The translations under genes and the position numbers were made by a program. A DNA stretch of 64,000 nucleotides from Candidatus Heimdallarchaeum aukensis (lineage in GTDB: Archaea > Asgardarchaeota > Heimdallarchaeia > Heimdallarchaeales > Heimdallarchaeaceae), in NCBI GenBank assembly GCA_021513695.1, contig CP084166.1, positions 288,001-352,000 on the forward strand. The letters are read 5' to 3'. The notes beneath the pieces were generated by a model. The model had not been told where the DNA came from and searched no databases. It saw nothing but the letters and a program-made list of their open reading frames with translations. Positions 7,415 to 41,720 of the stretch are shown here, piece after piece; within the stretch, counting starts at the first letter, position 1, and each line of letters begins with the position of its first letter.

Positions 7415-7451
7415 TTTAGTTTTTAATAAATAAAAACAATAACTTTAATTC

Positions 7452-7459
7452 TTTTTTTT
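7452..7459 (+). terminator. Oligo-T tract (T8), candidate archaeal intrinsic terminator downstream of the giant ORF.
   Basis: The 'ctttttttta' tract lies 38 nt after the TAA stop at 7412-7414. Archaeal RNAP terminates at oligo-T stretches. Confidence 0.35.
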
Positions 7460-7669
7460 ATGCTTATTCTTATTAAAAAGTTTTAGTTTTAGATTAAAAA
7501 AATCATGCATTATTATCATACTTTTTATTAAAAGACTGTTTATTCTAACGATATAACAACCAATATTATCAAGTTGAAGATACCATAAATAAACTAAATT
7601 AAGTTAAAAACCGTCTGTTATGATTTTTTTTACTTTCCAAGCATTAATTTTTTATTGAAATATTTTGTT

Positions 7670-9481
7670 TTAAAGAAAATTTGTTATAGCTTTTTGTATT
7701 TGTTCAATTGTTTTGTATCTTTCAAAGCGGAATTCTTTGTTAAATCTAGTTCCTCTTGGGTCTAACAGTATGTGAACTGCTTTATCATTTTCGTTTCTAA
7801 TTGCTCTTCCAAAAGATTGAATTATTCTTTGAACAGTAGGAATAATTATTGTAAAATCTATTGCGAATTTTTTTCCATATTTTTTAGTTAATTCTTCTCT
7901 TAGAATTTGATTTTTTGGGTCAGGTGGAGGAAAAGGGAGGGCTGTGATAATTACTCCTTTGATAATACTCTTACCATTTTTTGTGAATTCTATTCCCTCC
8001 GAGATCTTTCCTCCAACGACACAGGCAACAGCTTTTTTTTCTTCAGCATTAGATAATATTGCTTGAACTGTAGAAATGTCCATTTTTGGTGTTTCTGAGA
8101 TGTCGACATCTAGAAAATAATTCTCTGTAAGGTCGTTTAGATATTTATAAGATGGGCAGAAAACAAGAACATGACCAGGAATAGCTTTATGTATCCTGTC
8201 GATTGCTTTAGCAATTTTTAAGAAATATTTTTCATCTCTGTATTGAAATTTACCATTATAATCTTTGTTTGACAAAATCATGTATTTTGAGTTCTTCGAA
8301 TTGGTTGAATAAAGTTGCAATTTTTCTGATTTAGGAAGACTAAAAAGCCTTTGAAATGAGTGAATAGGTTCAAAGCTTCCACTCATCATTACTATTTTTC
8401 TTGCGTCGACTATTTTCCTTAAAATAGTTGATGGTAGAGGATTTATAGTTGATAATCTTTTTGTGTCTGATATTACTCTCTTTCCTTGACTTTCTTTTAT
8501 AAAGTGGTAAGCAATGTAAGCATTGATTGATTTAATCTCTTCTTTCCTATATTGAGCATTGAGTTTCTTTAATATCTCTTTTTCAAAATTCTTTAGTTCT
8601 TCCTCATCCAATTTATAATTAAAAACCTGTGTTTCAGTTATTTTTTCTAATAGTTCTTGAATAAAAGGATGGTTATTTTCTTCTACTGCTTTTTCTAAAA
8701 TGCTTTTAGTAATCTCTAAATTTAGAACTTGGAATAAATTATGTGCTTCATCTACTGCAATTATGGCTTTAGAAAGGTCAATTTTTAACCTGTTAAAGAG
8801 ATAATTAAAAAGAAAGTAATCTTCAAGAAAAGGGTAGCTGGTTATTACTACATCTGCATTTTGAGCAAGAATAAAATTGACATAATATGGACAATAATTA
8901 GTATTTTCATAGACAGATACCAAATCTTCTTTAGAATTCATATCAGGATAAACTGAAAAAAGGTTTTTGGCAATCTTTTTGATTTGTGAATTTGTAAGGA
9001 GTTTTGTTTTCTGTTTTAAGGTACATTTAGTCAAAGAACAGATGTGGGTATACATCTCTCCAGGGTATTTTTTATTTCTCTTAACACACAATTCATTTTT
9101 TCCCAAGATGGTTAGAACTAAAGGTAAATTGAAATTAAAATGCTCCTTTAATTTGTCCCAATTGGCAATTATTTTTCTATAAATAAGTCCAAATTCTTTC
9201 AAGAAGACGTTTATCTGAGCTTTAGTTCTTACAAAAATAATGACTTTTTCTTCTGGTTTCTTAACTGCGAGCAGACTAACAAGTAAAGCAGCAGTTTTTC
9301 CTACTCCTGTTGTAGCAGAGACAAGTAAAGGATTCTTTGTAGTTAAAACCCTTTGAATAAAGCTTAATTGATCCTTTTTGATTTCTGGAAAAGGGAAAAG
9401 ATCTTTTACTCTATTCCATTCTTCATCCTGTATTTGTGTTATTGACCTATTTAGGTGCTGATTTAGAACCATTTCATCCAT
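7670..9481 (-). CDS. xpd: XPD/Rad3-family 5'-3' DNA helicase with an FeS domain, superfamily 2, DEAH box.
   Basis: Walker A: ATTGVGKTAALL. Four-Cys FeS cluster: C(VKR)...HIC(SLTK)C...NYC(PYY). DEAH box: AVDEAHNL. C-terminal XPD motifs: VLVFCPSY, GGKISEGIEF, ITALPFPPPDP, QSFGRAIRNENDKAVHILLDPR. Confidence 0.7.
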   Translation of the reverse strand: MDEMVLNQHLNRSITQIQDEEWNRVKDLFPFPEIKKDQLSFIQRVLTTKNPLLVSATTGVGKTAALLVSLLAVKKPEEKVIIFVRTKAQINVFLKEFGLIYRKIIANWDKLKEHFNFNLPLVLTILGKNELCVKRNKKYPGEMYTHICSLTKCTLKQKTKLLTNSQIKKIAKNLFSVYPDMNSKEDLVSVYENTNYCPYYVNFILAQNADVVITSYPFLEDYFLFNYLFNRLKIDLSKAIIAVDEAHNLFQVLNLEITKSILEKAVEENNHPFIQELLEKITETQVFNYKLDEEELKNFEKEILKKLNAQYRKEEIKSINAYIAYHFIKESQGKRVISDTKRLSTINPLPSTILRKIVDARKIVMMSGSFEPIHSFQRLFSLPKSEKLQLYSTNSKNSKYMILSNKDYNGKFQYRDEKYFLKIAKAIDRIHKAIPGHVLVFCPSYKYLNDLTENYFLDVDISETPKMDISTVQAILSNAEEKKAVACVVGGKISEGIEFTKNGKSIIKGVIITALPFPPPDPKNQILREELTKKYGKKFAIDFTIIIPTVQRIIQSFGRAIRNENDKAVHILLDPRGTRFNKEFRFERYKTIEQIQKAITNFL

Positions 9482-9564
9482 TAAATTGATTTAATAAATG
9501 ATATAAAAAGTAGAGAAAAATCGTTAATTAACTTTATAATATCAAAAATTTCTAAGTAATTAGA

Positions 9565-10536
9565 ATGACTAAATCGACTGTAACAAAGAATGGAAACAAA
9601 GATTCAAAGATATTACCAATTACATTAAAGCTATCTGTTATAAGTTTTAATCGTGTTTCTATCCCATCTCATTTAAGCTTCATTGAAACTGGTGATACAA
9701 TAATAGGAACTATTGAACATGAACTATTGCCAAGTCCTCAATATTTAAACAAGCAATTAAGTTCTAATCGAACTATAACTTTAGGTTTCTTAAAAAAACA
9801 ATTTCCTGGAAAAAAGCTACCTGAAAATATAACTATAACTATTAGAGAAGTGATAAAAAAGAAAGAATCTTTGCCCACAGTAAATGTTTTTGGGTATATA
9901 AGAAATCAAGACAAACTAATTTATTTTGATAAGTCTGAATTTTCTTCCTCTTCTCTAAAAAAATTAAAAGATAAAGCGAAGAATAGTGTTGAAATATTAT
10001 ATACAAAAAAAGATAATATGCCGTTTACTATTCTTCAAGGAGATTATTTTAAGGATTTAGATCTTTGGGTAGTTCCTATTATTTTCTATCTTCAAGGAGA
10101 TTTTGGTTTAGTTCCATCTTGCCTGTTACTGCTTTTTGATAAAGTAAACTTTACTAAATTTTCATCAATACAAGATAAGGCTAATCTTTTGATAGAGCGA
10201 TATGTTACTTGGTTAAGTTTTGAAGAAGATTTGAATGAAGAAACAATCAAACTCTTTGCTTTACAGCTGACTCATATAATAGAAACTAATACTTTACCAG
10301 CTTTCTATGGATTACAAGAAATACTAACAATGGAAGATGAACTTAAAAAAAGAATATTGATTATCTGCATTAAAAACAGGAAAAAAAATGGAATTACTTT
10401 AGAAGAGTTATTTGAACATTTAGAAAGTTACAGTGAAGAAGTAGTTAAAAACAAAGTTGAACAATTAGAAAAAGAGAATCTTCTTTTATTATTGGACAAA
10501 AAAACTGAATCATATGATATTTCTTGGTTGTTGTAG
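9565..10536 (+). CDS. Hypothetical protein, 323 aa. Its C-terminus looks like a winged helix (ITLEELFEHLESYSEEVVKNKVEQLEKENLLLL). It is divergent from xpd.
   Basis: Long ORF at a coding-like position 83 nt from the divergent xpd start. I recognise no known motif. Confidence 0.45.
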   Translation: MTKSTVTKNGNKDSKILPITLKLSVISFNRVSIPSHLSFIETGDTIIGTIEHELLPSPQYLNKQLSSNRTITLGFLKKQFPGKKLPENITITIREVIKKKESLPTVNVFGYIRNQDKLIYFDKSEFSSSSLKKLKDKAKNSVEILYTKKDNMPFTILQGDYFKDLDLWVVPIIFYLQGDFGLVPSCLLLLFDKVNFTKFSSIQDKANLLIERYVTWLSFEEDLNEETIKLFALQLTHIIETNTLPAFYGLQEILTMEDELKKRILIICIKNRKKNGITLEELFEHLESYSEEVVKNKVEQLEKENLLLLLDKKTESYDISWLL

Positions 10537-10569
10537 TTAAGGCAATTTGAACTTTAATGAACTCTTTTT

Positions 10570-12093
10570 TTGAAAAAGTTAGTAAAAATATATAAAACTA
10601 CAAAACAATCTTTAATTATGGTGCTTTACTTAGCCAAAATAATTAATTTTTACTCAAGGTTTATTGGTTACATATTGTCTTTTATTGTACCCATCTTTTT
10701 GATAGGAATTATCTCATTAGAAGGAGTATCAGTCGAAGCAATAACCTCATCTTCATTCTTGTTTGCTATTACTATTAGTTGGGGTGTGTTATTAGGAAAT
10801 AGTTTACTACTTTCAATAAATGCAATTATCGTTTCTCTTTCTTTTGATAATGAAGTAAGAAAACTAAAAGAAGAAGGAAAACCAATAGAATCTGCTGAAG
10901 GTTTCAGGAATCTAGAAAGACGTTATAAAATGAGCAACTTTTTTATTTTCGTTATACTTTTTCTAGCTATTCTTTCTTGGTTGTTTTTTAACTTCGCTAT
11001 TAAAATAAAAGAAGAGTTAGCAAAGTTCTTTAACTATGTGATTAGTGAAGAAAAACTAGCTTCTCTTAATCTTTATCTAACTTTAAGCTTTCTACTATTT
11101 ACAGTTGCAGCAACTTTAATTTTTCGTATTCCTTCAATTGCAGACCTAAGAATTGGAACTTTGTTGAAATACTATAAACCTTCAAGACACAAATATGTTT
11201 TGAATTCGTACTTTTATGATGTTGTGTTTAGTTTACTTGATCCTATTACTCGCATCTATTTTTTGAAATGGAGTGAGAAGTCAGTTAAACAATTAAACGA
11301 TGATTTTGCTCCTAAAATTGTTTCTTTGATTGAAAGAAAGAATTTAGCTGTTCAAAACATATTAATTCTATATTATTTACATCATCGATTTCCTAGTTTA
11401 ATTGATTTTGATACTTTAAAAAATGAAATCAAAAGAATTATCCCAGAAGAAAGAGTTGATAACCTATTTTACAGATATGAATTCAACTTAGAAACTTGGA
11501 AAAAGATATTTTCAATCTTACTCAAGAAAAATAGGGACTTATTTTTAATTATTGACAGAATAATATTTACTTTGAAAGAAACACCTTATGTTATGAATTC
11601 TAAGAAATACTGGTTTACTAGTGCTGTTCCTCCAACTCAAAAAAAAGAAGAAAGCCAAGACATTATCTTTTTTGTTTGGAATCGAAATAAAAATTCAGGA
11701 TATTCACCATTTATTTCCTTAAGCTTCATTGGAGCTGATGATCTCTCTCCTCACGATTTTGAAATGTCATTTAAAATACGTAAATATGATGATTTCATTT
11801 TAATTCCTGAAGATTATGATTTTGATAAAAACCCTGATTTACGTTTTTTGGTTAAACTTGTTACAGGGATTGTTTATCAAGGAACAGGTATATGGTTTTC
11901 AGTACATAGCGAGAACATTGGTAGCAATATGATTGCCATCGAGTTTAGAGAAAAAGAAGAACCTTTAGAAACACAGATGTTCAACATGAGAGTAGTTATA
12001 GATTTTAGAACAATTTTACAGTCGTGGGGACCAAGATTACTCGCATCCTTTGGTGTGCTTCTACCTTTAGTCAAAGCAATATTAGGGTTATAA
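10570..12093 (+). CDS. Hypothetical membrane protein, 507 aa. It has 4 to 6 N-terminal TM helices and a soluble C-terminal domain. It is probably co-transcribed with the 9565 gene.
   Basis: Hydrophobic segments: FIGYILSFIVPIFLIGIISL, FLFAITISWGVLLGNSLLL, FFIFVILFLAILSWLFF, LYLTLSFLLFTVAATLIF. There is a 33-nt gap to the upstream gene. Confidence 0.45.
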   Translation: MKKLVKIYKTTKQSLIMVLYLAKIINFYSRFIGYILSFIVPIFLIGIISLEGVSVEAITSSSFLFAITISWGVLLGNSLLLSINAIIVSLSFDNEVRKLKEEGKPIESAEGFRNLERRYKMSNFFIFVILFLAILSWLFFNFAIKIKEELAKFFNYVISEEKLASLNLYLTLSFLLFTVAATLIFRIPSIADLRIGTLLKYYKPSRHKYVLNSYFYDVVFSLLDPITRIYFLKWSEKSVKQLNDDFAPKIVSLIERKNLAVQNILILYYLHHRFPSLIDFDTLKNEIKRIIPEERVDNLFYRYEFNLETWKKIFSILLKKNRDLFLIIDRIIFTLKETPYVMNSKKYWFTSAVPPTQKKEESQDIIFFVWNRNKNSGYSPFISLSFIGADDLSPHDFEMSFKIRKYDDFILIPEDYDFDKNPDLRFLVKLVTGIVYQGTGIWFSVHSENIGSNMIAIEFREKEEPLETQMFNMRVVIDFRTILQSWGPRLLASFGVLLPLVKAILGL

Positions 12094-19808: not shown

Positions 19809-20678
19809 TTATTTATTTCTCTCTACTATTTTTTTTTCTAATATATCAGCGATTTGTTGAATCGATAAGTGAAGTTCGGAACCTTCAGGAGCAAAATAAT
19901 TACCATTTATAGTTCGATTGTTGATTTCGTCAGAATATCGAATTTCCTTTAGAAATTCTATTTTTTTAGGTTTATACACTTCAATTATTTCCTTTTTCCA
20001 TTTTTCTAATATCTTCTCAACCTCTGGTTCTTTATCAAAAGGAGTTTGATTATAAATGAAATAAGTAGAAGGTTTTTTTGTTTTTGCAGATGATAAAACA
20101 TCAATTTCTCTATACATTTTTTTTAACATATATTTTGCCCCTTTAAAGCTAAAAGTACTTGGTCTGAGAATAAATAAATTAATATCACTAACACATAATG
20201 CGTAAAGACTTTCTATTTTCCACCCTGGTGTACAATCAAAAACTATACAATCATAACCATTCTTTTTTACAGTATTAACAAATTCTATTAATCTAAAAAA
20301 AGCATTGTCTTGAATCTCTTTCATCAAATTTAGGAGACCTGAACCGAATTCAACTTCTTCTTTGGAAACAATTACATCTAAGTTTTCTATATTAGTATAA
20401 CTAACATTATTTTTATTAAAATTCTTGTTCCCAAGCAATATATCATTAATAGTTAATTTAATTTCTTCTTTTGAGATATTAAATACATGTTGAGCAGTTC
20501 CTCCTCCTATGTCTAAATCCACAAAAAGAGTTTTTTTGTTTCTTTTTGCAAATTCTAAAGCTAAGTTAACTGAAATAGTTGTTTTTCCGGGGCCACCCTT
20601 TTGACTATGAACAGCAATAACGCTAATACGTGATCTAGGTTGATTTTCAACATCCCACTTGAATTCGCTAAGTTCCAT
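19809..20678 (-). CDS. ParA/MinD-family P-loop ATPase with a deviant Walker A motif.
   Basis: Walker A: IAVHSQKGGPGKTTISVNLA. Walker A': VDLDIGGG. Walker B: CIVFDCTPG. Confidence 0.7.
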   Translation of the reverse strand: MELSEFKWDVENQPRSRISVIAVHSQKGGPGKTTISVNLALEFAKRNKKTLFVDLDIGGGTAQHVFNISKEEIKLTINDILLGNKNFNKNNVSYTNIENLDVIVSKEEVEFGSGLLNLMKEIQDNAFFRLIEFVNTVKKNGYDCIVFDCTPGWKIESLYALCVSDINLFILRPSTFSFKGAKYMLKKMYREIDVLSSAKTKKPSTYFIYNQTPFDKEPEVEKILEKWKKEIIEVYKPKKIEFLKEIRYSDEINNRTINGNYFAPEGSELHLSIQQIADILEKKIVERNK

Positions 20679-22720: not shown

Positions 22721-23779
22721 ATGAAACTTAATAAACTAAATAAAAGAGCAGTTTCACCAGTTATTGCAGTTGTTTTATTAATCGCTTTAGTAACTGCAGC
22801 TGTAGCTATAGTATTTTTTGTAGTTTTGCCAATGGTTCAGGGAGATCCTCAACTAGTAGTCTTAAAAATCACTCCAAGTGATACAGATGGAGACAAAAGA
22901 GTTGATACACTGATTATAGATTACCAAAATCTTGGTTCAGGAGAAGCAGTTATTTCAAGTATAATTTTGTACAAGTATAACAATTCAATGGAATGGACAG
23001 TAGATAAAACACTTCCTTATTCTCTAAAATCTAACAAGAAAGACGTAATAACTTTAACTACTTCCGACCCTACCAAACAATTAAAATATCCTGATATCGC
23101 TTATCTTGAAACTACTTACAGCGATGGAATTCTTTTAAGAACAGATATAACAATAGATTCTAGTTTCTCTCCTGTTACTTTAATCTATTCTGAAGACTTC
23201 AACTCATACTCTGACGGATACTCTCCAACTGAATGGACATATTTCCTTGTAGCACAACATAGTCCTACAGGAACACATACTATTAATGATTGGCAAGTAC
23301 AAAGTGGTTCACTCAAAGTAATGGCAAATGATTGTACCTATATTGTTCTTAATTCAAGTACAGGTTATTATTATACTAACGTGAATATGAGCTTTGACCT
23401 TAAAGCAAATGATAACGACGAACTTGGAATCATCTTTAGGTGGCAAATGGACGGAGGAAAAGAAAAATACTACTTAGTAAGCTATACCAGAGATCATGGT
23501 TTATCTGATCACTTTGGAGGAGATAATCCTACAGATGGTTATGTAACTTTATCTTATGTTGAAGACAACACCATTACTGTAATTGATAGTGCTTCATTTA
23601 GCAGAAATGACAACAGTTGGTACAATTATCGATTAGTTACAGATGGTACATCGATAAAGGTATATATCAATGATGTACTCTATATTGACACTACAAGTTC
23701 TCTTTTATCTGGAGGATATATTGGTCTTGTATCAGCTGCAATGAATGGAGCAGAATTTGATAACATTCTTGTCTGGTAA
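22721..23779 (+). CDS. Secreted protein with an archaeal class III (type IV prepilin-like) signal peptide, fused to a DUF1080-type (concanavalin/LamG-like, 3-keto-disaccharide-hydrolase-like) domain.
   Basis: N-terminus: MKLNKLNKRAVSPVIAVVLLIALVTAAVAIVFFVV, matching the KRAVSPVIA prepilin-peptidase motif plus hydrophobic helix of TIGR02537-like proteins. C-terminus: GYIGLVSAAMNGAEFDNILVW, matching the DUF1080 end motif. Confidence 0.6.
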   Translation: MKLNKLNKRAVSPVIAVVLLIALVTAAVAIVFFVVLPMVQGDPQLVVLKITPSDTDGDKRVDTLIIDYQNLGSGEAVISSIILYKYNNSMEWTVDKTLPYSLKSNKKDVITLTTSDPTKQLKYPDIAYLETTYSDGILLRTDITIDSSFSPVTLIYSEDFNSYSDGYSPTEWTYFLVAQHSPTGTHTINDWQVQSGSLKVMANDCTYIVLNSSTGYYYTNVNMSFDLKANDNDELGIIFRWQMDGGKEKYYLVSYTRDHGLSDHFGGDNPTDGYVTLSYVEDNTITVIDSASFSRNDNSWYNYRLVTDGTSIKVYINDVLYIDTTSSLLSGGYIGLVSAAMNGAEFDNILVW

Positions 23780-23845: not shown

Positions 23846-24991
23846 TTAATATACTCCCAATTGTTCATCTTTTTTTAGTATTCTTCTAGGGTTCCTAATT
23901 CCGTCTCTATTGCTGTAAATACCTTTTCCTTTTATTAATTCTCCATAGTCCCCATATTGAATTAAAGCTGGTATCACACATTCGGGGCTTACTCTTTGGC
24001 TAACTACTGTTCCTTCTTCACCATAGCTCCCTCGTTGACTAATGTCATTTTCATCTTTAGTTATGAACATATTCATTCTTTCCCAAGGATAATAATCTAA
24101 ATCATAATTATCATTGGGTAATTCTGTTTGCATTGTTGGTCCAAAAAGTGATTGTCCGTAGTATCCTGCAAGAGGTAATTGTAATTCTTCTTTAACTAGT
24201 CTATGTGTCTCCTGAGACATTGGAACACCCCCATGAATAATTGCTTTAAGATTTCCTTGCTCTTTCATTTTTTTGATTATAGGATACATTTTTTCAATAA
24301 TTACACCAGTTGTAATAACAATTCCTATGTTACTGAATTCTTGTTCTATCAAATTCTGTACTTGAAAATTCATATTTTCTAGGTATAGCTTCGCTGCATT
24401 TGGATCTTTCATCATTGCGACTTTTATAAATCGAGGATCAAGGTCTATGTGATAAATCATTGATTCCATATCTCTATCCCAGTACTTTATTACCCACTTT
24501 CCAGCCATATGTGGGCCTGTAGGAAGCATTGATAAAACATTCAACCCTCTTGGGATTTTGTGTGCATCAATCATTTGTAAAGCTGCTTGACTAGCAACAG
24601 GAAAAGTAGGTGTTTCAATATCGTATGGGTCTAATTCTCCTGGGAGAAGTGTCATATCTTCTAGAAAGACAGTTTTTTTTGGCTTGCCTGTTGTTCCTCC
24701 AGTTTCAACTAAAGGAGTAGATCTATATCTATTCTTCTTTGCCCACTGAAAAGCCCATTTAGTAGTTGTATGGTAAATAGACTTTCTAAACTCATCAGGG
24801 TTTACATTGCCAAAAAACTCTGCAAGTTCAACCCAGTTTCTAACATCACCTTTTTTTACATTTTTCTCCTTTGCTAGATTAATCATCATAGGAGAGCCAT
24901 ATTGTTCATCAATAGCGATATTTACGCATTCTTCAATAAAATCACTTATTTGATTTTTACTTGCTGTTTTACTTTTGGTCTCTGTAATCAT
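23846..24991 (-). CDS. Adenylate-forming enzyme of the PaaK / coenzyme-F390-synthetase / LuxE (acyl-protein synthetase) superfamily.
   Basis: AMP-binding P-loop VETGGTTGKPKKTV, compare PaaK SSGTTGKPT and LuxE TSSGTNG. The 381 aa length resembles LuxE. Confidence 0.5.
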   Translation of the reverse strand: MITETKSKTASKNQISDFIEECVNIAIDEQYGSPMMINLAKEKNVKKGDVRNWVELAEFFGNVNPDEFRKSIYHTTTKWAFQWAKKNRYRSTPLVETGGTTGKPKKTVFLEDMTLLPGELDPYDIETPTFPVASQAALQMIDAHKIPRGLNVLSMLPTGPHMAGKWVIKYWDRDMESMIYHIDLDPRFIKVAMMKDPNAAKLYLENMNFQVQNLIEQEFSNIGIVITTGVIIEKMYPIIKKMKEQGNLKAIIHGGVPMSQETHRLVKEELQLPLAGYYGQSLFGPTMQTELPNDNYDLDYYPWERMNMFITKDENDISQRGSYGEEGTVVSQRVSPECVIPALIQYGDYGELIKGKGIYSNRDGIRNPRRILKKDEQLGVY

Positions 24992-25232: not shown

Positions 25233-26885
25233 TCATGAAAAATAGTAAGTATTTAGAACAAGTTTATCATAGATTTCTTGATACATTGAAGCAAGAGCAG
25301 AAGTTGCTAATTCTTTTTCAAATTCTCTCGTAGTAATCTCTTCATCAGTTTTCTTTTTTAACCAATTAAGTCTAAAGATTGAAATTAGTGCTCTTCCGAT
25401 ATAGTATAGACTTAATGGTAAGGCTAAAACAATTTGGACTAAAAGTTTTAGAATATTAATTAAAGCAATTATTCCTTTTTTATCATTTTGTATCTGTAAT
25501 TTCTCATTATCTTTAGATTCTTTTTTGGTTAATTTTTTAATAAATTCTCTTTTCATTTCTTTGAATCGAGTTTTAACATAGATTTTCAAAAAATTCTTCT
25601 GTGTTTTACTTAGGAAAAATTGTGTTTCTGATTTAATATGCTTTATGTAGTCGATGAAAATTTCGACTATGGCTAGTACAGGGCCTAACAAAAAGATTAT
25701 TGTGTTTCGGAGAAAAATCAGAATCTTAAAATACCATGGATTCTCAGTAAAAAAGTCTAATATGTATCTTTGACCTCCTAAAGCTAAAGAAAAAGCTATC
25801 TGACTGAACACATTATCTGATAAATCTATATTGTATTTCTTTTCTAACTCATAAATTCCTCTTAAACTACCTGTAAGCAAAATTGAGTTATAAAATTCAT
25901 CAGAGACAAATTTATCTTTTAATTTGTTGGCTATAAAACTTAAAGCTTTTTTAGCTTCTTTGTATGTTAAGTTGTTATTTTTAGCGAATTGTTTAATTGC
26001 AGGATTTTTTTTCCATGGAAAGAAACTTGATTGCCTTTTCCAGATAAGTAAAGCAAAAGCTCGAGCAATTGAATCCTCTATTTTATGCATGTCAAGTCTT
26101 TCTTGATCAATTTTAGATAGATATTGATTAAATAACTCTTGAGTTTCTTTGCTCATATTAGCTCCGTAAATATTTAGAAAATCCATAACTCTTCGTTTGA
26201 TTGCATCTACATCTTGATGTAAATCAATTTTAAAATCTTCATAAGTTTCTTTAGAAATAGGTGGAGCATCAATAAAACGGTAAGAACTTCTAGAAGCAAG
26301 AAAAGGTAAGGCGAAGATATCTTCCAGTTTTTGGTAATAATAAGCTGCTCGATAAGCTTTATATTTAAGCATAATCATACTCATTTTGTGAAATAGCTTG
26401 AAAAACGGTCCAAAAGAGGCTGTTATTGCACTTAACATTCCTTGAACAGTACTAAAAACTAAAATTAATATTAAAGGATGAATATAGCTAAATTTCTCAA
26501 GAAAAGGTTGTTTCCATACAAATAATGGAAGAAGGACAAAGAGAGAAAAAGTAGAAAATTTATCAAAAAGTTCTCCAACACTTCGTTGGATAGGATAAGC
26601 ATCTCTTATTTTTTCTTGTTTCAAAAGAATATCATCTACTGTTTCTTGTACATTAGCTAACTCCTTTTTCTCTTTACTTGCAAGAATGGTGGAGAGATAA
26701 AGAAGATATTTTCTTTGGATATTTAAAGCAGGAACTAATTCAGTAATACTTCTTGGAATAAAGATATAGGATATAATGAGCAAAATCTTTGAAAGAACTA
26801 CAATTGGAAATAGAAGAGAGACAACAATTATTGCTAAAAAGTCTATCCACTTAGAGTGATGTTCTATCTCTTCTACTTCCGTCAT
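25233..26885 (-). CDS. Hypothetical polytopic membrane protein, 550 aa.
   Basis: Several hydrophobic helices: LAIIVVSLLFPIVVLSKILLIISYIFI, FSLFVLLPLFVW, ILILVFSTVQGMLSAITASFGPFF, IIFLLGPVLAIVEIFI. Confidence 0.45.
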   Translation of the reverse strand: MTEVEEIEHHSKWIDFLAIIVVSLLFPIVVLSKILLIISYIFIPRSITELVPALNIQRKYLLYLSTILASKEKKELANVQETVDDILLKQEKIRDAYPIQRSVGELFDKFSTFSLFVLLPLFVWKQPFLEKFSYIHPLILILVFSTVQGMLSAITASFGPFFKLFHKMSMIMLKYKAYRAAYYYQKLEDIFALPFLASRSSYRFIDAPPISKETYEDFKIDLHQDVDAIKRRVMDFLNIYGANMSKETQELFNQYLSKIDQERLDMHKIEDSIARAFALLIWKRQSSFFPWKKNPAIKQFAKNNNLTYKEAKKALSFIANKLKDKFVSDEFYNSILLTGSLRGIYELEKKYNIDLSDNVFSQIAFSLALGGQRYILDFFTENPWYFKILIFLRNTIIFLLGPVLAIVEIFIDYIKHIKSETQFFLSKTQKNFLKIYVKTRFKEMKREFIKKLTKKESKDNEKLQIQNDKKGIIALINILKLLVQIVLALPLSLYYIGRALISIFRLNWLKKKTDEEITTREFEKELATSALASMYQEIYDKLVLNTYYFS

Positions 26886-27199: not shown

Positions 27200-28207
27200 A
27201 TGAGTTTAAAAGGATACATTTTACGGAGAATTTTGTACATCGTTCCCGTAATGGTTGCAATTACATTAATGAATTTCACTTTGATCAATGTAGCTCCTGG
27301 AGATCCTGTTATTGTTCGAGTAGGTCTAATTAAGTGTGAGACTCCAGAGTGCTATAATAATGCGTACAACAAAGCAGCCATCGAAATGGGGTTGATGTCT
27401 CCAAACTATTATACTGTTCCTTGGTTTGAAAGATATGTTTCTTTTATGAATGATTTGTTACATTTTGATTTTGGTAAAAGCTGGTCAAACACTCAAGGAG
27501 GAGAAGGAATACCAGTTGCGGATATTATCAAGCGTCATGCTGTATATACAGTAACATTAAACTCTTTGTCTTTTGTTCTTTCATTATTGCTTTCTACTGC
27601 AATAGGCGTTGTTTCAGCTACTAGATCTAGGTCTTTTTGGGATAAATCCTTGACTGTAGCAATGTTGTTAGGATATTCGATGCCGCTATTTTGGTTGGCA
27701 AAGTTATTAATGTATGTGAGTTTTGTTTTATTTGGATTTACAGGAGTATCAAACAAACAAGCCTTTAACAAGCCTTTATTGCTTAATCCACATTTCTACA
27801 AGTTTATGCTGTTGCCGCTACTATCTTTAACTTTAGGTGGACTAGTGTTTATGGCTAGACTAATAAGGTCACAACTATTGGAAATACTAAGGCAGGATTA
27901 CATAAAAACAGCAATGGCTAAAGGTGTAGAACAACGAGCTGTAATATATAAGCATGCTTTTAGGAATGGTTTACTACCGATAGTGACAATTATAGGGAAT
28001 TCATTACCCGGTTTACTATCTGGGTCAGTGATGATAGAAACAGTTTTTGGTTGGCCAGGGTTAGGAACTTACTTCTTAGAAGCTGCATTTATGAGAGATT
28101 TCCCCATGATGATGGCAACTAATACCATATTCCCGTTCTTGTTTCTCATAGCAAGATTACTAACAGATATAACCTATGTCTTTATAGACCCGCGAATTAA
28201 ATACTAG
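27200..28207 (+). CDS. ABC transporter permease, DppB/OppB (peptide/nickel) family. It is orphaned: no adjacent DppC, ATPase or SBP genes.
   Basis: N-terminus YILRRILYIVPVMVAITLMNFTLINVAPGDP. The EAA loop region is KTAMAKGVEQRAVIYKHAFRNGLLPIVTIIG. Confidence 0.75.
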   Translation: MSLKGYILRRILYIVPVMVAITLMNFTLINVAPGDPVIVRVGLIKCETPECYNNAYNKAAIEMGLMSPNYYTVPWFERYVSFMNDLLHFDFGKSWSNTQGGEGIPVADIIKRHAVYTVTLNSLSFVLSLLLSTAIGVVSATRSRSFWDKSLTVAMLLGYSMPLFWLAKLLMYVSFVLFGFTGVSNKQAFNKPLLLNPHFYKFMLLPLLSLTLGGLVFMARLIRSQLLEILRQDYIKTAMAKGVEQRAVIYKHAFRNGLLPIVTIIGNSLPGLLSGSVMIETVFGWPGLGTYFLEAAFMRDFPMMMATNTIFPFLFLIARLLTDITYVFIDPRIKY

Positions 28208-30844: not shown

Positions 30845-31684
30845 ATGGAAAATGAAGAAACTCTAATAAATGAGCTGAAAAGTGGTTTCGGAACTATAGG
30901 GGTTACTTCTCTTGTAGCTTTTATTTTTAATCTTGCTTTTCTAATTTTTCAGCTAAGCTATTTAAGTAATTATTCACATAATAATTTATCATATAGTAAC
31001 TATTATTTAATATATATTGGCGGTAGTAGTATTTCTTCATTGTTGTTTACTCTGATTTACTTTAGTTTTTTGTACTTAAGCAGAAAGATAGATGAAATAG
31101 AAAAAAGCAAAGAAAACACTATATTTAGAATATCAACAACTATTGCAATTTTGATAATATTCTTTAATATTGGATTCTTTTTAGCTCAATTCTTAGTTGT
31201 AAATGCTGATCAATATTCTGATATTTTTAGTATATCTTACATTATTTTGCAGATATGCTTCATTTTCGTTTATATCTTCTTTGCTCTTTCAATAAGTAAA
31301 ATGAATAGTAAAATGGAAGTTGGAGTAATTATTTGGCCAATTGTAATATATGCAACTATTAACTCAATCGGAGCAATATTTAGGCTAATAATTCAAACTC
31401 TTATTATACTACAACTCTCTTCTTCTGCTTTATTCACCAGCATACTATATTCTTTCTTTAAAAGTATTGATCTAGTTGTTGAATTAATATTTATTATAAC
31501 CATGTTCTTTGTAGCAAACAATGCTCAAATTTCTTTATTACATCAAGTACCACGATATACTTCTTATGCATATTCAGGACCTGTATATAAATCCAAACAA
31601 TCAACTAATTTTTGTCCTTTTTGTGGAACAGAAAATTCTCCTGATTCAAAATTTTGTATAAACTGTGGAAAAAGGATAGATTAG
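30845..31684 (+). CDS. Polytopic membrane protein with a C-terminal cytoplasmic zinc ribbon. This is paralog 1 of a tandem pair.
   Basis: Six to seven TM helices. C-terminal CPFCGTENSPDSKFCINCGKRID is a CxxC...CxxC zinc ribbon. Confidence 0.55.
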   Translation: MENEETLINELKSGFGTIGVTSLVAFIFNLAFLIFQLSYLSNYSHNNLSYSNYYLIYIGGSSISSLLFTLIYFSFLYLSRKIDEIEKSKENTIFRISTTIAILIIFFNIGFFLAQFLVVNADQYSDIFSISYIILQICFIFVYIFFALSISKMNSKMEVGVIIWPIVIYATINSIGAIFRLIIQTLIILQLSSSALFTSILYSFFKSIDLVVELIFIITMFFVANNAQISLLHQVPRYTSYAYSGPVYKSKQSTNFCPFCGTENSPDSKFCINCGKRID

Positions 31685-31962
31685 ATTCTCTACCATTTAT
31701 CTTTTTATTTTGCTATAGAAATCCAAACATCAAAAAAATTTTACTAGTTGATTTATAGGTTATTTTTTAATCCTCACAAAAAAGAATGATCTCTGAAAAT
31801 TTTTTGCTTAAATTTTCACTCGAACTTAAAAATTATCTACACTGAAGTTGAAATAAATTATTAATTAAAAAGTATCTTTAGTTTAATTTTCTATAGTTTT
31901 ATTAAGAAGCATGAAAAAATATATTGAAAGCTTTATATATTTGGATTTGTAGCCTTATATTT

Positions 31963-32808
31963 ATGAAAAATGAAGAACTTCTAATTAATGATTTGAAGCT
32001 AGGTTTCAGAAAAATAGGATTTGTTTCAATCTTAACTCTGGCTTTTAGTCTTGCTTTTGTAATTATTCAACTTAACTATGTAAGTAAAATGTCACATGGT
32101 ATAAGTCTTTATTTAGTATATCTAGTAGGGAATATTCTTTCTTTATTGTTTTTAGCTCTAATTTATTTTGCTTTTCTATACTTAAGTGGAAAGATAAATA
32201 AAATAGAGAAAAGTAAAGAAAATACTATATTTAGCACAGTAACGATAATTGCAGTAGTGTTAATATTCTTCGATATTGGATTATTTTTAGGTCAATTTTT
32301 ACTTAGCTTTTCCAATATGCAATTTTCTAATATATTATCCATTATTTATGTTATTTTTTACATTATTTTGTTACTAAGTTCTTTTTTTGTATATATCTTC
32401 TTTCCTCTTTCAATAAATAAAATGAATAGTAAAATGGAAATTGGAGTAATTACCTGGCCAATTGTTATATATGCAATTGTTAATTCAATTGGAGTAATGA
32501 TAAGAATAATAGCACAAGTTTTCATTGTTTTACAAATTACTCCTATGGCTGTATTTACAAGTATTCTCTATTCTATCTTTCAATTTATAAATCTGGCTGT
32601 TGAATTAATGTTTATTATAAGCATGTTTTTTGTAGCTAACAATGCTCAAATTTCTTCATTACATCAAGTACCACAATATGTTCCTTCTGCATATTCAGGG
32701 CCTGTAGATAAATCTAAACAACCAACATTTTGTCCTTTTTGTGGAGCACAAAATTCTCCTGATTCAAAGTTTTGTATAAACTGTGGAAAGAAGATAGATT
32801 CGAATTAG
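31963..32808 (+). CDS. Polytopic membrane protein with a C-terminal zinc ribbon. This is paralog 2 of the tandem pair. I placed the start at the ATG (MKNEELLINDL), which aligns with the paralog 1 N-terminus; the track started at the TTG at 31924.
   Basis: MKNEELLINDLKLGF versus MENEETLINELKSGF. The two are collinear throughout. Zinc ribbon: CPFCGAQNSPDSKFCINCGKKIDSN. Confidence 0.55.
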   Translation: MKNEELLINDLKLGFRKIGFVSILTLAFSLAFVIIQLNYVSKMSHGISLYLVYLVGNILSLLFLALIYFAFLYLSGKINKIEKSKENTIFSTVTIIAVVLIFFDIGLFLGQFLLSFSNMQFSNILSIIYVIFYIILLLSSFFVYIFFPLSINKMNSKMEIGVITWPIVIYAIVNSIGVMIRIIAQVFIVLQITPMAVFTSILYSIFQFINLAVELMFIISMFFVANNAQISSLHQVPQYVPSAYSGPVDKSKQPTFCPFCGAQNSPDSKFCINCGKKIDSN

Positions 32809-37164: not shown

Positions 37165-38199
37165 TTGAGATATGTAAAATTAAAAAAAGAAAAAATTAGA
37201 GAGTTCTTGCTTGCTCTACAAGACTATGGGGAACTTTATGCACCAATTAAGGTTTCGGAGAAATATTTTGATTTTAGAAGGATTACAAATGAGCAAGTAG
37301 ACGAAGTAGTTTTAGATTACAATCGTACTCTTCGTCCTCCGAGGAGATTTTTCTTTCCTGAAAAAGAAGTATTGTTTACCTTTAACAGCAAAAAAGTAGA
37401 AATGTACGAGAATAAAGAAGCTTTTACTTCTGAACCTGTGGTCTTATTTGGAGTACATGCATGTGATATTGTTGGTTTACGGATAATGGATTCAAGATTT
37501 ATAGATGATCAGCCAGATCCTTATTATCGAGCTAGAAGAGAGAAAGGAATAATTATTGGTATTAGTTGTTTACCTGATGAATACTGTTTTTGTAATGTTC
37601 GAAGAGCTGAGTTTGTAGATAGCGGTTTTGATTTGTTTTTAAGTGAAGTAGAAGATGGTTATGTCATTCGTGTAGGTAGTGTAAAAGGGCATAAGATAAT
37701 TGATGCAACAGAGCATCTTTATGTTAAAGTAACAAAGAAAGATAGTGATGACTTAACTGCTTTTGATGTCAAAAAAAGTAAAATGTTTACAGTTTCTGGA
37801 AATTGGGACTCTTTACGATATACTCTCGAACTAAATGATGAACATCCAGTTATTTGGATGAGAGAAAGTGAAAAGTGTTTGGGGTGTGGAAACTGTACCA
37901 TTACTTGTCCTACTTGTAGATGTTATGATGTAAAAGATTATCCCAACTTAGACGGAGAAACAGGTGTTAGAGTAAGAATATGGGATTCATGCCAATTCAG
38001 AGAACATGGATTAGTTGCAGGAGGACATAATTTTCGACCAACAAAAGAAAGTAGGTTCAAGAACAGATACATGTGCAAAAATGCTTATTGTAAAGAAGTT
38101 ACAACAGCATATTGTGTCGGTTGTGGAAGATGTACGTATTTCTGTCCTGCTGGTATAAATTACAAGCAGAATTTAATTGAAATTAGAGGTGGAATTTAA
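37165..38199 (+). CDS. hydB: Group 3b [NiFe]-hydrogenase (sulfhydrogenase) beta subunit, FeS protein.
   Basis: MRYVKL N-terminus as in the Pyrococcus sulfhydrogenase beta subunit. Two ferredoxin-like 4Fe-4S motifs: CLGCGNCTITCPTCRC and CVGCGRCTYFCPAG. TTG start preceded by GGAGAG 10 nt upstream. Confidence 0.75.
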   Translation: MRYVKLKKEKIREFLLALQDYGELYAPIKVSEKYFDFRRITNEQVDEVVLDYNRTLRPPRRFFFPEKEVLFTFNSKKVEMYENKEAFTSEPVVLFGVHACDIVGLRIMDSRFIDDQPDPYYRARREKGIIIGISCLPDEYCFCNVRRAEFVDSGFDLFLSEVEDGYVIRVGSVKGHKIIDATEHLYVKVTKKDSDDLTAFDVKKSKMFTVSGNWDSLRYTLELNDEHPVIWMRESEKCLGCGNCTITCPTCRCYDVKDYPNLDGETGVRVRIWDSCQFREHGLVAGGHNFRPTKESRFKNRYMCKNAYCKEVTTAYCVGCGRCTYFCPAGINYKQNLIEIRGGI

Positions 38200-39086
38200 T
38201 GACTGAAGAATCACATAGAAGATACATTCCTGATGGTCAAGATAACTTGTACGATACACATAAATGTAGAGTACTTCGTGTTTATAAGCAAACTGAAATG
38301 GATAAAGTGTTTTTATTCAGGTTCGTAGATCAAGAAGTCGGTAAAAATTGGAAGTTTAAACCAGGGCAATTTGTAGAATTATCTCTACCTGGAATAGGTG
38401 AAGTGCCAATTTCAATATGTTCTTCTGCAATGCGTATTGGATTCTTTCAATTATGTATTAGAAAAGCAGGAAGGGTTACAACGAAGATACATGAGTTGAA
38501 ACCTGGAGATATCGTGGGAATAAGAGGACCTTATGGAAATGGTTTTCCAATGGAGAAATTTTTTGGAAGAAATCTCTTGCTTGTTGCAGCAGGATTAGGA
38601 ATGGCCCCCTTACGTTCTGTTTTCCTATATGCAATAGATAATAGATGGAGATTCGGAGATATAACTATTATTAACTCTGCTAAATATGAAAGAGAACTCT
38701 TATTTGCAAGAGAGTTAGAAGCTATGAGAGATATAGCAGAAGCAGAAAATATACAAATTATTCAGACAGTAACAAGAGAAGACAGTCCTAATAGATTGAA
38801 GGGTAGAGCTTCAGAGCATTTAGATAAAGTAATGATAGATCCAAAGAATAGTACAGTAGCGTTATGTGGTCCTCCAAGAATGTATAAGAGTATGTTTGAA
38901 AAATTAGTTGAAATGAATTATGATCCACGGAGAATATTTGTAACTCTAGAAAGAAGAATGAAGTGTGGAATAGGAAAGTGTGGGCACTGTAATCTCGGAA
39001 ACTCCACTTCTTGGAAATACGCTTGTATTGATGGTCCTGTTTTTGACTACTACGATATCATCAGCACCCCAGGAATGTTAGAATAG
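38199..39086 (+). CDS. hydG: Sulfhydrogenase gamma subunit: FAD/NAD(P)-binding oxidoreductase with a 2Fe-2S cluster.
   Basis: Flavoprotein-pyridine-nucleotide-reductase-like domain, with GxGxAP in LVAAGLGMAP. C-terminal cluster motif CGIGKCGHC. The start overlaps the hydB stop (ATGA). Confidence 0.75.
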   Translation: MTEESHRRYIPDGQDNLYDTHKCRVLRVYKQTEMDKVFLFRFVDQEVGKNWKFKPGQFVELSLPGIGEVPISICSSAMRIGFFQLCIRKAGRVTTKIHELKPGDIVGIRGPYGNGFPMEKFFGRNLLLVAAGLGMAPLRSVFLYAIDNRWRFGDITIINSAKYERELLFARELEAMRDIAEAENIQIIQTVTREDSPNRLKGRASEHLDKVMIDPKNSTVALCGPPRMYKSMFEKLVEMNYDPRRIFVTLERRMKCGIGKCGHCNLGNSTSWKYACIDGPVFDYYDIISTPGMLE

Positions 39087-39097
39087 GAGGAAAAAAA

Positions 39098-39952
39098 ATG
39101 TCGATGAAAACAACAATAATCCCTGAAGATCAGAAGATAGAAATAAAAGAGGAAACTAAAAGAAAACCTACAATTGGAGTTTATGCTTTGACTTCTTGTT
39201 ATGGTTGTCAATTAAAAATAGCTACTGTTTCAAAGATTCTTGAGATTGCTGAAAGTGTAGACATAGAAAGCTTTTACATGTTATCTTCTGATAGCAGTAT
39301 ACATAAGAAAGTCGATATCGCTTTTGTTGAAGGTTCTGTTTCAACAAAGAAAGATTTAGAAGAATTACTCGAGATAAGAAAAAATAGTAAAACTCTAGTG
39401 GGTGTAGGAGCTTGTGCTTTACAGGGCGGTGTCCAAAGCTGGAGTAATGGTATTAAGAGCTATGATGAGCTTTTTGAAAATGTATATGGAAAAAACAAGA
39501 TTGAGATATCAGAAGCTATAGAAGCAAAACCGATAGAAGAATATGTTGAAGTTGATTTTAGATTACCTGGTTGTCCTCCTGAAGAAGAAGAAATAATTTA
39601 TTTCATCTCTACTTTCCTATTTGGTTCATGGCCAGAAGAAAAAGACTATCCTGTATGTCAAGAGTGCAGATTCGCAGGAAATATTTGTTTGCTTATTGAA
39701 AAGAATGAGCCTTGTTTAGGTTCAATAACAACTGCAGGATGCAATGCACGTTGTATCTCATATAATGTTCCTTGTATTGGATGTCGAGGACCTGTACCTA
39801 ACGATGTAGCATGGTTTGATTCTCTAGCAAAAGTCTTTGTAGAGAAAGGATTTACAGAAGAGTATATCAGAGAAAGAATGAAGATCTTCGGTTCTCACCA
39901 TCCTAAATTAGAAGAGTTGTTAGCTAAAGTTTTTGGAGGAGAAAAAAAATGA
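39098..39952 (+). CDS. hydD: [NiFe]-hydrogenase small (delta) subunit, NuoB-like FeS protein.
   Basis: ALTSCYGCQ proximal-cluster motif, plus further Cys ligands (GACALQGG, CPP, C..C..C). Confidence 0.75.
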   Translation: MSMKTTIIPEDQKIEIKEETKRKPTIGVYALTSCYGCQLKIATVSKILEIAESVDIESFYMLSSDSSIHKKVDIAFVEGSVSTKKDLEELLEIRKNSKTLVGVGACALQGGVQSWSNGIKSYDELFENVYGKNKIEISEAIEAKPIEEYVEVDFRLPGCPPEEEEIIYFISTFLFGSWPEEKDYPVCQECRFAGNICLLIEKNEPCLGSITTAGCNARCISYNVPCIGCRGPVPNDVAWFDSLAKVFVEKGFTEEYIRERMKIFGSHHPKLEELLAKVFGGEKK

Positions 39953-41259
39953 CAACAATAAAATTTACACAACCTATAACCGTTGATCATATTGCGAGGA
40001 TTGAAGGAAAGGCAGGAATAGAAGTACAAATTAATGATAAAAAAGAAGTAGAAGTTAAAGTAAATATCTTTGAAGGTCCTCGTCTTTTTGAAAGTATAGT
40101 AATAGGAAAGAGTGTAGAGGAGGCAACAGCGGTATTTCCGAGAGTATGCTCTTTTTGTGCTGCTGCACATAAAATAACAGGATTGCTAGCTGCTGAAGAT
40201 GCTATTGGTTTACAAGTTTCAGAGCAAACAAGCAAAATAAGAGAACTAATGTATATTGGTGATATGATTGAAAGTCATGCTTTACATCTATTTTTACTAG
40301 CTTTACCTGACTTCCTAGGTTATCCAGATGGAATAAGCATGGGCAAAGAACACCCTTCTGTAATTAAAGCAGCTCTTCAACTGAAAGATTTAGGTGCTAT
40401 TATTCAAACAATTACAGGTTCTAGATATATTCATCAAGAGAATGCTTTAATGGGTGGTTTTGGAAAAATACCTACAAAGGCTAAACTAAACGAAATTATT
40501 AAACTCTTACATGATTCTAAAGATGTTTCTACTGTTGCACTTGAGCAATTTGCAAAGTATGAATTGTGGGAAGAAGTAAGTTCAGAGAGACTACATCTAG
40601 CTTTAGAACCAAAAAACGATGTTTATGGAATAATAGGAGAGAAAATAAAAGCAAGTGATGGAACAAGTTTTAATGCCAATGAATACATGAAAAATATAGA
40701 AGAAAGAGTTGTTCCACATTCATTCGCAAAGCATTCAAGTTATAAAGGAAAGAGGTTCACAACAGGAGCTCTATCAAGAATAACTTTGTTCAATTCTTTG
40801 TTAAATGACAAAAGCAAAGAGTTATACAGCAACTATAACAATTTCATTGATGCTAATAATCCACTATCTAACAATATAGCCCAAGCAATTGAATTAAGTT
40901 ATTTCATAGACCGCGCAGAAGAGTTAACTTTAGACATATTAGAGAATTATAAGGATGAGCAGCGTATAAAGCCTACTTTTAAAGAGGGTATAGGTTATGC
41001 CGTAACAGAAGCTCCTAGAGGGTTGCTAGCTTACATGATTAGTGTAAATGACGAGGGTAAAGTAACAAAAGCAGATATCATTACTCCTACTGCAATGTTC
41101 CTAGCACAAAAAGAAGTAGACTTGAAAAAAATGACAGAATCCATGATTGAGAAAGGAGTTGAAGATCCTTCAGAAATAAGTAAGAAATTAGAAACAATAG
41201 TCAGGTCTTATGATCCTTGTGTGTCCTGTAGTGTTCATGTTACTAAATTAAGAAAATAA
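39949..41259 (+). CDS. hydA: [NiFe]-hydrogenase large (alpha) subunit.
   Basis: N-terminal NiFe ligand motif RVCSFCAAAH (RxCxxCxxxH). C-terminal DPCVSCSVH followed by a short extension that the maturation protease removes. Translationally coupled: ATGA overlap with hydD. Confidence 0.8.
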   Translation: MTTIKFTQPITVDHIARIEGKAGIEVQINDKKEVEVKVNIFEGPRLFESIVIGKSVEEATAVFPRVCSFCAAAHKITGLLAAEDAIGLQVSEQTSKIRELMYIGDMIESHALHLFLLALPDFLGYPDGISMGKEHPSVIKAALQLKDLGAIIQTITGSRYIHQENALMGGFGKIPTKAKLNEIIKLLHDSKDVSTVALEQFAKYELWEEVSSERLHLALEPKNDVYGIIGEKIKASDGTSFNANEYMKNIEERVVPHSFAKHSSYKGKRFTTGALSRITLFNSLLNDKSKELYSNYNNFIDANNPLSNNIAQAIELSYFIDRAEELTLDILENYKDEQRIKPTFKEGIGYAVTEAPRGLLAYMISVNDEGKVTKADIITPTAMFLAQKEVDLKKMTESMIEKGVEDPSEISKKLETIVRSYDPCVSCSVHVTKLRK

Positions 41260-41720
41260 TGATTTATATGAACAAAACACTTATTCTTTCCCTTGGTAGT
41301 AGAGTAATGTCAGATGACGCTATTGGACATGTCATTGTTCAAAACCTTCAACAAAAGAAAGTTAAAGCTGATATTATTCAATTAGATACTGATATTTTCA
41401 AATTAAACTTATTTTTTGATAATCATAAAAGAATAATAATCATCGACGCTATTCAAAGCAGTGATTCACCAGGGACAGTTCATGTAATTCCTTTTCATGA
41501 TTTTGAAAAGGAGATCGAAGGAAAAATTAGAGGAAGTCATTTTTTGGACATGAAAGAAGGTTTAGAACTTCTGCGTATAGCTAACTCCAAAATTGCTGAA
41601 GCTGAAATATTTTTAGTAGGTATAGTTATTAAAAAAATTGAACTAGGAACGGATTTAACTCCAGTTTTATTAAAAAAAATTGATGAAGTTTGTAATATTA
41701 TATCTGATCTTATAATATAG
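41259..41720 (+). CDS. hycI: Hydrogenase maturation endopeptidase (HycI/HybD family).
   Basis: LGSRVMSDDAIGHVIV matches the GNxxxxDDGxG motif. The 153 aa length fits. It sits immediately after the large subunit. Confidence 0.7.
   Translation: MIYMNKTLILSLGSRVMSDDAIGHVIVQNLQQKKVKADIIQLDTDIFKLNLFFDNHKRIIIIDAIQSSDSPGTVHVIPFHDFEKEIEGKIRGSHFLDMKEGLELLRIANSKIAEAEIFLVGIVIKKIELGTDLTPVLLKKIDEVCNIISDLII

Follow-up and report, generated by a model that had tools for sequence, protein, structure and literature searches.

A probable modular type IV pilin with a lectin-type head in Candidatus Heimdallarchaeum aukensis

What is the role of a protein that begins like an archaeal pilin and ends in a domain named after a sugar hydrolase? 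The question is raised by a gene at 22721..23779 in a 64,000-nucleotide stretch of DNA (hereafter the window; contig CP084166.1, positions 288,001 to 352,000 of the forward strand) from Candidatus Heimdallarchaeum aukensis, an Asgard archaeon of the Heimdallarchaeia with a closed genome (chromosome of 3,081,793 bp, G+C content about 30%). An original prediction, made from the sequence alone, had described a class III, prepilin-like N-terminus joined to a C-terminal DUF1080 domain, and had suggested either a pilus-tip adhesin or a surface-tethered protein that binds or processes glycans. The open reading frame (ORF), with its ATG start, lies exactly where that prediction had placed it, and an NCBI record from the same organism that is 100% identical to its product bears the name 'DUF1080 domain-containing protein'. 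Our analysis supports the adhesin or glycan-binding side of the proposal: the predicted structure consists of a helix, an immunoglobulin (Ig)-like sandwich and a concanavalin A (ConA)-like sandwich, the N-terminal module is pilin-like and the head resembles the carbohydrate-binding module (CBM) CBM66. We consider that the protein is probably a modular minor archaeal type IV pilin, which would display a lectin-type head of the CBM66/DUF1080 kind on a pilus.

The N-terminal pilin module

The AlphaFold2 model of the full-length protein, for which a 16-sequence family alignment served as input, has a mean predicted local distance difference test (pLDDT) score of 90.5 and a predicted template-modelling (pTM) score of 0.69. 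It comprises a helix (residues 13-40), a β-sandwich (residues 45-143) and, after a short linker, another β-sandwich (residues 156-351). The features of the gene are as follows.

22721..23779, + strand: whole gene, encoding a modular type IV pilin-like protein of 352 aa
22721..22750, + strand: predicted leader, residues 1-10 (MKLNKLNKRA), which carries positive charge; R occupies -2 and A occupies -1; predicted class III cut between A10 and V11
22751..22840, + strand: hydrophobic domain (H-domain), or alpha-1 helix, of the mature protein, residues 11-40 (VSPVIAVVLLIALVTAAVAIVFFVVLPMVQ); helix 13-40 in the model; putative filament-core or membrane-anchor helix
22850..23149, + strand: Ig-like β-sandwich, residues 44-143, which makes up the globular portion of the pilin module, as indicated by pLDDT above 90, Foldseek and the family profile
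23150..23185, + strand: short linker between pilin module and head, residues 144-155, from the secondary structure of the model
23186..23776, + strand: ConA-like β-sandwich head of the DUF1080/CBM66 type, residues 156-352; PF06439 lies over residues 185-349 (23273..23767)

According to this model, the protein is a complete pilin module onto which a C-terminal module that is not specific to type IV pilus (T4P) biology has been grafted.

A pattern scan identified the N-terminus of the protein, MKLNKLNKRA/VSPVIAVVLLIALVTAAVAIVFFVVLPMV (the slash marks the predicted cut), as the sole class-III-like N-terminus in the window. It shows the short charged leader, the alanine at -1, the charged residue at -2 and the position of the site ahead of the hydrophobic domain that the class III rule describes. 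A Sec/signal peptidase I (SPI) signal peptide was ruled out, given that a 28-residue helix makes up the hydrophobic stretch and that the conserved small residue stands before rather than after it.

A word-indexed search retrieved ten relatives, and those with names all belong to Heimdallarchaeota. In the ten-homologue alignment, which takes in the truncated P0003 and P0004 and the divergent P0010, the residues A10-V11-S12-P13-V14-I15-A16 are invariant at an overall identity that goes down to 23%. Precomputed matches to the Pfam family Pilin_N (PF07790) are present on the homologues P0003, P0005 and P0007-P0010, and the paralogues of a related pilus operon (L007, described below) reach 32 bits with the same family. 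The motif [KRDE][GAS]xSP[VIL][VIL][AG] was found near the N-terminus in 64 of the 156 retrieved relatives; the shortest of these carriers has 96 aa and the longest 917 aa, with 24 of at most 180 aa (plain pilins), 28 of 181-450 aa and 12 longer ones. A motif kept so strictly before a hydrophobic helix, despite differing C-terminal parts, would fit a shared processing enzyme and appears to exceed the needs of a membrane anchor.

The N-terminal module modelled alone (residues 1-151) reached a pLDDT of 94.3 and formed a long helix and a sandwich, as in solved archaeal pilins. In a Foldseek search of the PDB, its best matches were nearly all archaeal type IV filament proteins (5tuh, 6pbk, 8fk7, 9eq7, 6w8u, 8q30, 5tfy and 5kyh), including FlaG/FlaF, the pilins of Pyrobaculum calidifontis and P. 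arsenaticum, the S. acidocaldarius Aap pilin, several archaellins and Iho670. The family sequence profile independently matched solved pilins, with the best value for Natrinema PilA2 (8gi2, E 2.5e-6), in an alignment of residues 7-117 that takes in the helix and some of the sandwich, followed by 9myg (E 7e-5) and by the Aap pilin of S. acidocaldarius (8q30, E 6.6e-4); 8fj5 and 8fk7 were also matched. Stand-alone pilins of 130-170 aa align with residues 2-145 of the protein. Because fold matches and independent profile matches agree, residues 1-143 are best regarded as a complete archaeal pilin module that goes beyond a signal or a stalk. The prepilin-like N-terminus of the original prediction is thus upheld, both by the invariant motif and by the profile matches to solved archaeal pilins, whereas its 'pilin-like stalk' says too little, since residues 44-143 form a complete Ig-like pilin globular domain.

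An exhaustive search of cluster representatives yielded 246 matches of three kinds: about a dozen full-length clusters of 350-395 aa, many proteins that match residues about 2-145 only, and large multidomain proteins that match the DUF1080 part only, such as P0013, with 3465 aa and 13 PF06439 repeats. Existing public annotation names pieces of the family 'type IV pilin', 'flagellin-like protein' or 'DUF1080 domain-containing protein'. A separate fusion was also observed in P0145 (424 aa), where Pilin_N (48.5 bits) is combined with a ConA-like domain of the Laminin_G_3/PF06439 type; its H-domain is different, and the combination of a pilin with a ConA-like domain therefore arose more than once in archaea.

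The C-terminal head

The family PF06439 (DUF1080/3keto-disac_hyd) matches residues 185-349 with an E-value of 2.1e-9 and a score of 38.2 bits, against a gathering threshold of 26.8, and the match spans profile positions 26-184 of 187. Since it runs to position 184 of 187, the C-terminal motif GYIGLVSAAMNGAEFDNILVW represents the end of the domain, in agreement with the DUF1080 assignment of the original prediction. As had been proposed for a structure-based check, the AlphaFold2 model folds the C-terminal domain as a ConA-like β-sandwich, and fold comparison places this head structurally closest to the lectin-type module CBM66. The names DUF1080 and CBM66 overlap and denote one domain (PMC5673643). 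On the basis of the modelled fold, the head most likely grips sugars and can be described as a putative carbohydrate-binding domain.

The name of the family suggests another role, namely that of an enzyme displayed at the surface, in which DUF1080 would act as a 3-keto-glycoside hydrolase/hydratase or another ConA-fold glycanase in extracellular glycan processing. PF06439 is named after 3-keto-disaccharide hydrolase, the fold matches of the head also include solved 3-keto-glucal hydratases (8v31, 9fbe and 8tda) and GH16 enzymes, and a glycosidase role has been suggested for DUF1080 proteins of Planctomycetes (PMC5673643). However, the head, with about 197 aa, has the size of a CBM, compared with 213-256 residues for the DUF1080 hydratase and 'putative glycosyl hydrolase' chains. 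In addition, neither a sugar 3-dehydrogenase (GFO/IDH/MocA) nor a sugar-phosphate isomerase-like partner appeared among the Pfam families of the scanned window ORFs (about 40), and the ExDxxE motif of GH16 was not seen in the protein when its sequence was inspected by eye. We regard an enzymatic head as highly improbable, and the hydrolase-like, glycan-processing half of the original either-or is the less likely one.

The original prediction had further assigned the same domain to a giant adhesin at the start of the window, and this part did not hold. The giant surface protein (2..7414, + strand) has a reading frame that is already open at base 2 and so extends beyond the start of the window. 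At E<=0.001 it matches TSP3_bac (about 20 repeats) and the Binary_toxB Ca-binding domain, to which FG-GAP_3 is added when the first 1000 residues are scanned alone. Its match to PF06439 is partial and sub-threshold (residues 641-696, 15.2 bits against 26.8, E 0.023); a hidden Markov model (HMM) of the family C-terminus scored 9.4 bits, hhalign gave a probability of at most 10%, and BLASTP was non-significant. The shared domain was not accepted, because this partial sub-threshold match was all that the four tests brought up. A DUF1080 domain may lie upstream of the window, as the first residues of the giant ORF, …FSADNSDHIFVW, resemble the last DUF1080 strand. The TSP3 repeats and a possible L-lectin-like domain of the giant ORF recall the thrombospondin signature domain.

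Pilus machinery, gene context and assembly

Is there a pilus into which such a protein could be built? The search in the window itself agreed with the original prediction that no pilus assembly genes are nearby: T2SSE, T2SSF and peptidase A24 are all missing from the Pfam matches of about 40 window ORFs, and the ATPase at 19809..20678 is, as that prediction had also held, not a pilus ATPase but one of the ParA/MinD type (AAA_31, CbiA, ParA). Elsewhere on the same 3,081,793-bp chromosome, a T2SSE ATPase named for Candidatus H. aukensis (P0300) was located by cluster membership, after a contig search with a Heimdallarchaeaceae ATPase had returned H. endolithica and not H. aukensis. Contigs with a protein identical to P0300 carry a 285-aa class III protein, DUF7266 and T2SSE, and on the opposite strand three class-III-like proteins and two T2SSF platform genes; the latter were seen on these contigs and not directly on the chromosome record. 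The recommended check for homologues of PilB and PilC therefore succeeded on the chromosome for the ATPase, and for the platform genes on the identical-ATPase contigs only. The sister species H. endolithica has the same pilus locus on a complete chromosome. A ribonucleotide reductase gene with three inteins containing LAGLIDADG endonuclease domains adjoins a pilus locus of the H. aukensis type (L040, 1..7229, - strand).

The H. aukensis chromosome further holds the gene of a separate 133-aa 'type IV pilin' (P0349, UJG40477.1), the mature helix of which, VSPVIATVLLIALVTAAAAIVFLVVLPMVQ, is identical to that of the modular protein in 27 of 30 positions. This H-domain identity fits, and indirectly supports, a joint assembly of the two proteins into one filament. 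A related arrangement is found in L007, a contig from a metagenome-assembled genome (MAG; GCA_030587675.2).

L007, 2207..5263 and 7156..10671: type IV pilus operon with three pilin paralogues (376, 172 and 331 aa), then T2SSE and two T2SSF

The 172-aa pilin of this operon, P0028, is 40% identical to residues 2-145 of the H. aukensis protein and is situated between the two paralogues with added C-terminal domains (376 and 331 aa), the first ~40-45 residues of all three being nearly identical. Directly downstream of the pilins lie another class III protein, T2SSE, two T2SSF and further class-III-like proteins, and the closest named relatives of the pilus ATPase are Asgard archaea. Judged by its sequences, the locus looks like a head-swapping pilin cassette. 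The loci of the short pilins P0042, P0053 and P0044 are on short contigs and were uninformative.

Another possibility is that the modular protein could itself be the major pilin, which would result in a thick filament covered by lectin heads. Large archaeal filament subunits exist, and the fold matches include one of them, Iho670 (5kyh, about 300 aa); each of the Haloferax adhesion pilins can serve as major pilin (PMC4371748), and the 12-residue linker might let the heads pack outside the filament. Against this, the same genome contains a short pilin of 133 aa that shares the helix, a short pilin adjoins the extended paralogues in the L007 operon, and bulky modular pilins of bacteria could be modelled at the tip only (PMC9934059). 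We consider a filament built mainly of the modular protein quite unlikely.

For the favoured minor pilin, we infer a pathway of five steps, which includes cleavage, pilus incorporation, position in the filament and sugar binding. The precursor would enter the membrane through Sec, and a PibD-type peptidase for class III signals would cut off MKLNKLNKRA, after Ala10. The N-terminal helix would then anchor the mature protein, and the Heimdallarchaeum type IV pilus machine, which is encoded elsewhere and comprises one ATPase and two platform proteins, would build it into a filament. The shaft of this filament is probably formed by the 133-aa pilin P0349, which has nearly the same core helix. Its bulky head would give the modular protein the role of a minor subunit that most likely sits at the tip or close to it, where the head may bind carbohydrate presented by a surface, a polymer or another cell.

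The gene context raises a further alternative, in which the protein is a surface-tethered lectin outside any pilus. Its class III signal would be processed or would serve as a mere anchor, and the head would capture glycans from the membrane or from a short, bindosome-like pseudopilus. Class III signals do occur on binding proteins other than pilins, such as those of the Sulfolobus bindosome, and 4364 putative binding proteins that carry a class III signal peptide (SPIII) have been reported (bioRxiv 10.64898/2026.04.22.720090). The gene is also solitary in every context seen, and glycoside hydrolases and major facilitator superfamily (MFS) transporters lie near relatives in two of them: GH2, GH127 and MFS genes near a 66%-identical orthologue (L001), and a GH63/MGH1-like gene directly downstream of another relative (L041). 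These neighbours lend weak context support to a carbohydrate role, and the association with glycoside hydrolases is not kept in L002, L042 or the window. However, beyond a signal peptide, the protein possesses the globular domain of a pilin in full, and the near identity of its H-domain with that of P0349 fits co-assembly as in Haloferax PilA1-6. Furthermore, the head lacks the fold of periplasmic binding proteins, and a conserved adjoining ATP-binding cassette (ABC) transporter was not found. The lone ABC permease of the window (BPD_transp_1; 27200..28207, + strand), at 3.4 kb from the pilin gene and with no adjacent ATPase, is not conserved in L001, L002, L041 or L042. A tethered lectin is accordingly the less probable reading, although a serious one. 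The permease is preceded by a 550-aa ORF (25233..26885, - strand) with no Pfam match, and the transporter arrangement is incomplete or unusual.

Several results weigh against the minor pilin that we favour. The matches of the N-terminus to established pilin profiles are just sub-threshold, with 20.5 bits against a cut-off of 25.2 for PF07790 and 19.5 bits against 20 for TIGR02537 (a match to DUF7289 is sub-threshold as well), and the Foldseek E-values of the pilin module are modest, from 1e-4 to 1e-3. A crude scan for GxGD and multiple transmembrane (TM) segments across about 719 kb of Heimdall-related sequence, without a genome-wide search, produced no class III signal peptidase, and its sole product was a T2SSF platform protein; pilins and peptidases are without mention in the genome paper and its supplementary files. 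No pilus genes adjoin the gene or its orthologues in five contexts (the window, L001, L002, L041 and L042). Finally, a survey reports that type IV filament (TFF) systems are rare and minimal in Asgard archaea, with 'few Heimdallarchaea' (bioRxiv 10.64898/2026.04.22.720090).

The absence of pilus neighbours carries little weight, because the ATPase P0300 and the pilin P0349 with its near-identical H-domain are encoded on the chromosome, because platform genes are present on the identical-ATPase contigs, and because the RAVS adhesion pilins of Haloferax are likewise encoded apart from their assembly genes (PMC4371748). As for the survey, we found the T4P-type ATPase at no less than 66% identity in 30 loci of species-representative genomes, mostly of Heimdallarchaeota and related Asgard archaea, along with several labelled 'uncultured archaeon'. 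The ATPase is represented in more than 100 protein clusters, and most of those that have a name are Heimdall-, Hod-, Kari-, Prometh-, Odin- or Borrarchaeum, along with a few Bathyarchaeia. By these sequence matches, it is spread more widely than the 'few Heimdallarchaea' of the survey.

In the window, the pilin gene is apparently monocistronic, with 168 nt upstream, and is convergent with a gene that ends at 23846. This neighbour (23846..24991, - strand, 381 aa) has no Pfam family, and its GGTTGKPK segment resembles the P-loop of adenylate-forming enzymes (PaaK/F390-synthetase-like). Two genes of similar size that lie next to each other (30845..31684 and 31924..32808, + strand; 279 and 294 aa), possibly paralogues, each carry a terminal zinc-ribbon and no other Pfam family. 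A [NiFe]-hydrogenase operon at 37165..41720 (+ strand) comprises Fer4_22, an FAD/NAD-binding subunit, the small subunit (Oxidored_q6), the large subunit (NiFeSe_Hases) and the maturation protease HycI, and a LarC-like nickel-insertion protein is encoded further downstream (62063..63292, + strand).

Known systems and biological meaning

The nearest bacterial parallel is PilC of Streptococcus sanguinis, which, like the H. aukensis protein, combines a class III signal, a pilin moiety, an Ig-like module and a C-terminal ConA-like lectin module; its pilin moiety is short, it binds glycans and it has been modelled at the pilus tip (PMC9934059). PilC is bacterial and has the N-methylation-type signal IPR012902, whereas the archaeal protein has RA/VSPVIA, with a predicted mature N-terminus VSPVI that lacks a Glu at +5. 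Moreover, the Ig-like sandwich of the archaeal protein is the globular domain of the pilin itself, and its lectin module belongs to the DUF1080/CBM66 type. Modular pilins, defined by a module grafted onto a pilin, have been surveyed with the IPR012902 motif, and that published survey took in bacteria only (PMC8179133). Judged from its predicted domains, the H. aukensis protein would work like a modular pilin, yet it is outside the bacterial IPR012902 family.

Among archaea, Haloferax volcanii PilA1-6 and the solved haloarchaeal pilins (Natrinema PilA2 8gi2, 9myg) share the core SPVI(G/A)V(I/V)L with the protein, and the FlaFind-predicted RAVS site of Haloferax PilA4-6 is identical to its KR-A/VS (PMC4371748). 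PilA4-6 have PibD as their prepilin peptidase, have been characterized in vivo as adhesion pilins and are encoded apart from pilB/pilC, and the common conserved H-domain of the PilA paralogues is required for pilus formation (PMC4371748). Haloarchaeal pilins differ from the present protein in that they are plain, of about 150 aa and with no added domain, and in that they come from a different phylum (Halobacteria). For the head, the reference is the CBM66 of Bacillus subtilis levanase SacC (4azz/4b1l/4b1m), a member of the DUF1080/PF06439 family that is attached to a GH32 enzyme and binds the terminal fructose of fructans, whereas the module considered here is attached to a pilin. The Sulfolobales bindosome (GlcS, AraS, TreS) and the SPIII binding proteins resemble the protein in their class III signal, in carbohydrate binding (putative in the case of H. 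aukensis) and in being encoded apart from the machinery (bioRxiv 10.64898/2026.04.22.720090). Bindosome proteins, however, are solute-binding proteins of ABC transporters located in transporter operons, in contrast to a pilin domain with a lectin/CBM fold and no conserved transporter.

Class III binding proteins have already been proposed to functionalise TFF machines in archaea (bioRxiv 10.64898/2026.04.22.720090). The design is thus known in bacteria and recently proposed for archaea, and the H. aukensis protein adds one more example of it, not a new principle; its value is that of a lead for experiments, with no conceptual surprise. If our reading is correct, an Asgard archaeon of the lineage closest to eukaryotes shows a lectin on a type IV pilus, and the protein would be an archaeal counterpart to the modular pilins surveyed in bacteria. 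It would also supply a confidently modelled candidate adhesin (about 200 aa) that can be cloned, and with it a means to study the attachment targets of Heimdallarchaeia. The T4P-type ATPase, the shaft pilin and the extended pilins appear to be common in Heimdall-related genomes, as opposed to the rarity of TFF in Asgard archaea reported by the survey.

Taking these observations further, we tentatively hypothesize, at a confidence well below that in the minor pilin itself, that Heimdallarchaeia use one minimal pilus machine together with a shaft pilin and scattered paralogues. These would keep a near-constant signal and core helix and carry interchangeable heads (DUF1080/CBM66 lectins, Ig arrays or domains of unknown fold), and the DUF1080-headed pilin would be a glycan-specific adhesin for partner cells or polymers. 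If such a system exists, cell-cell contact in Asgard archaea, which is central to syntrophy models of eukaryogenesis, would become testable through a defined lectin-ligand pair.

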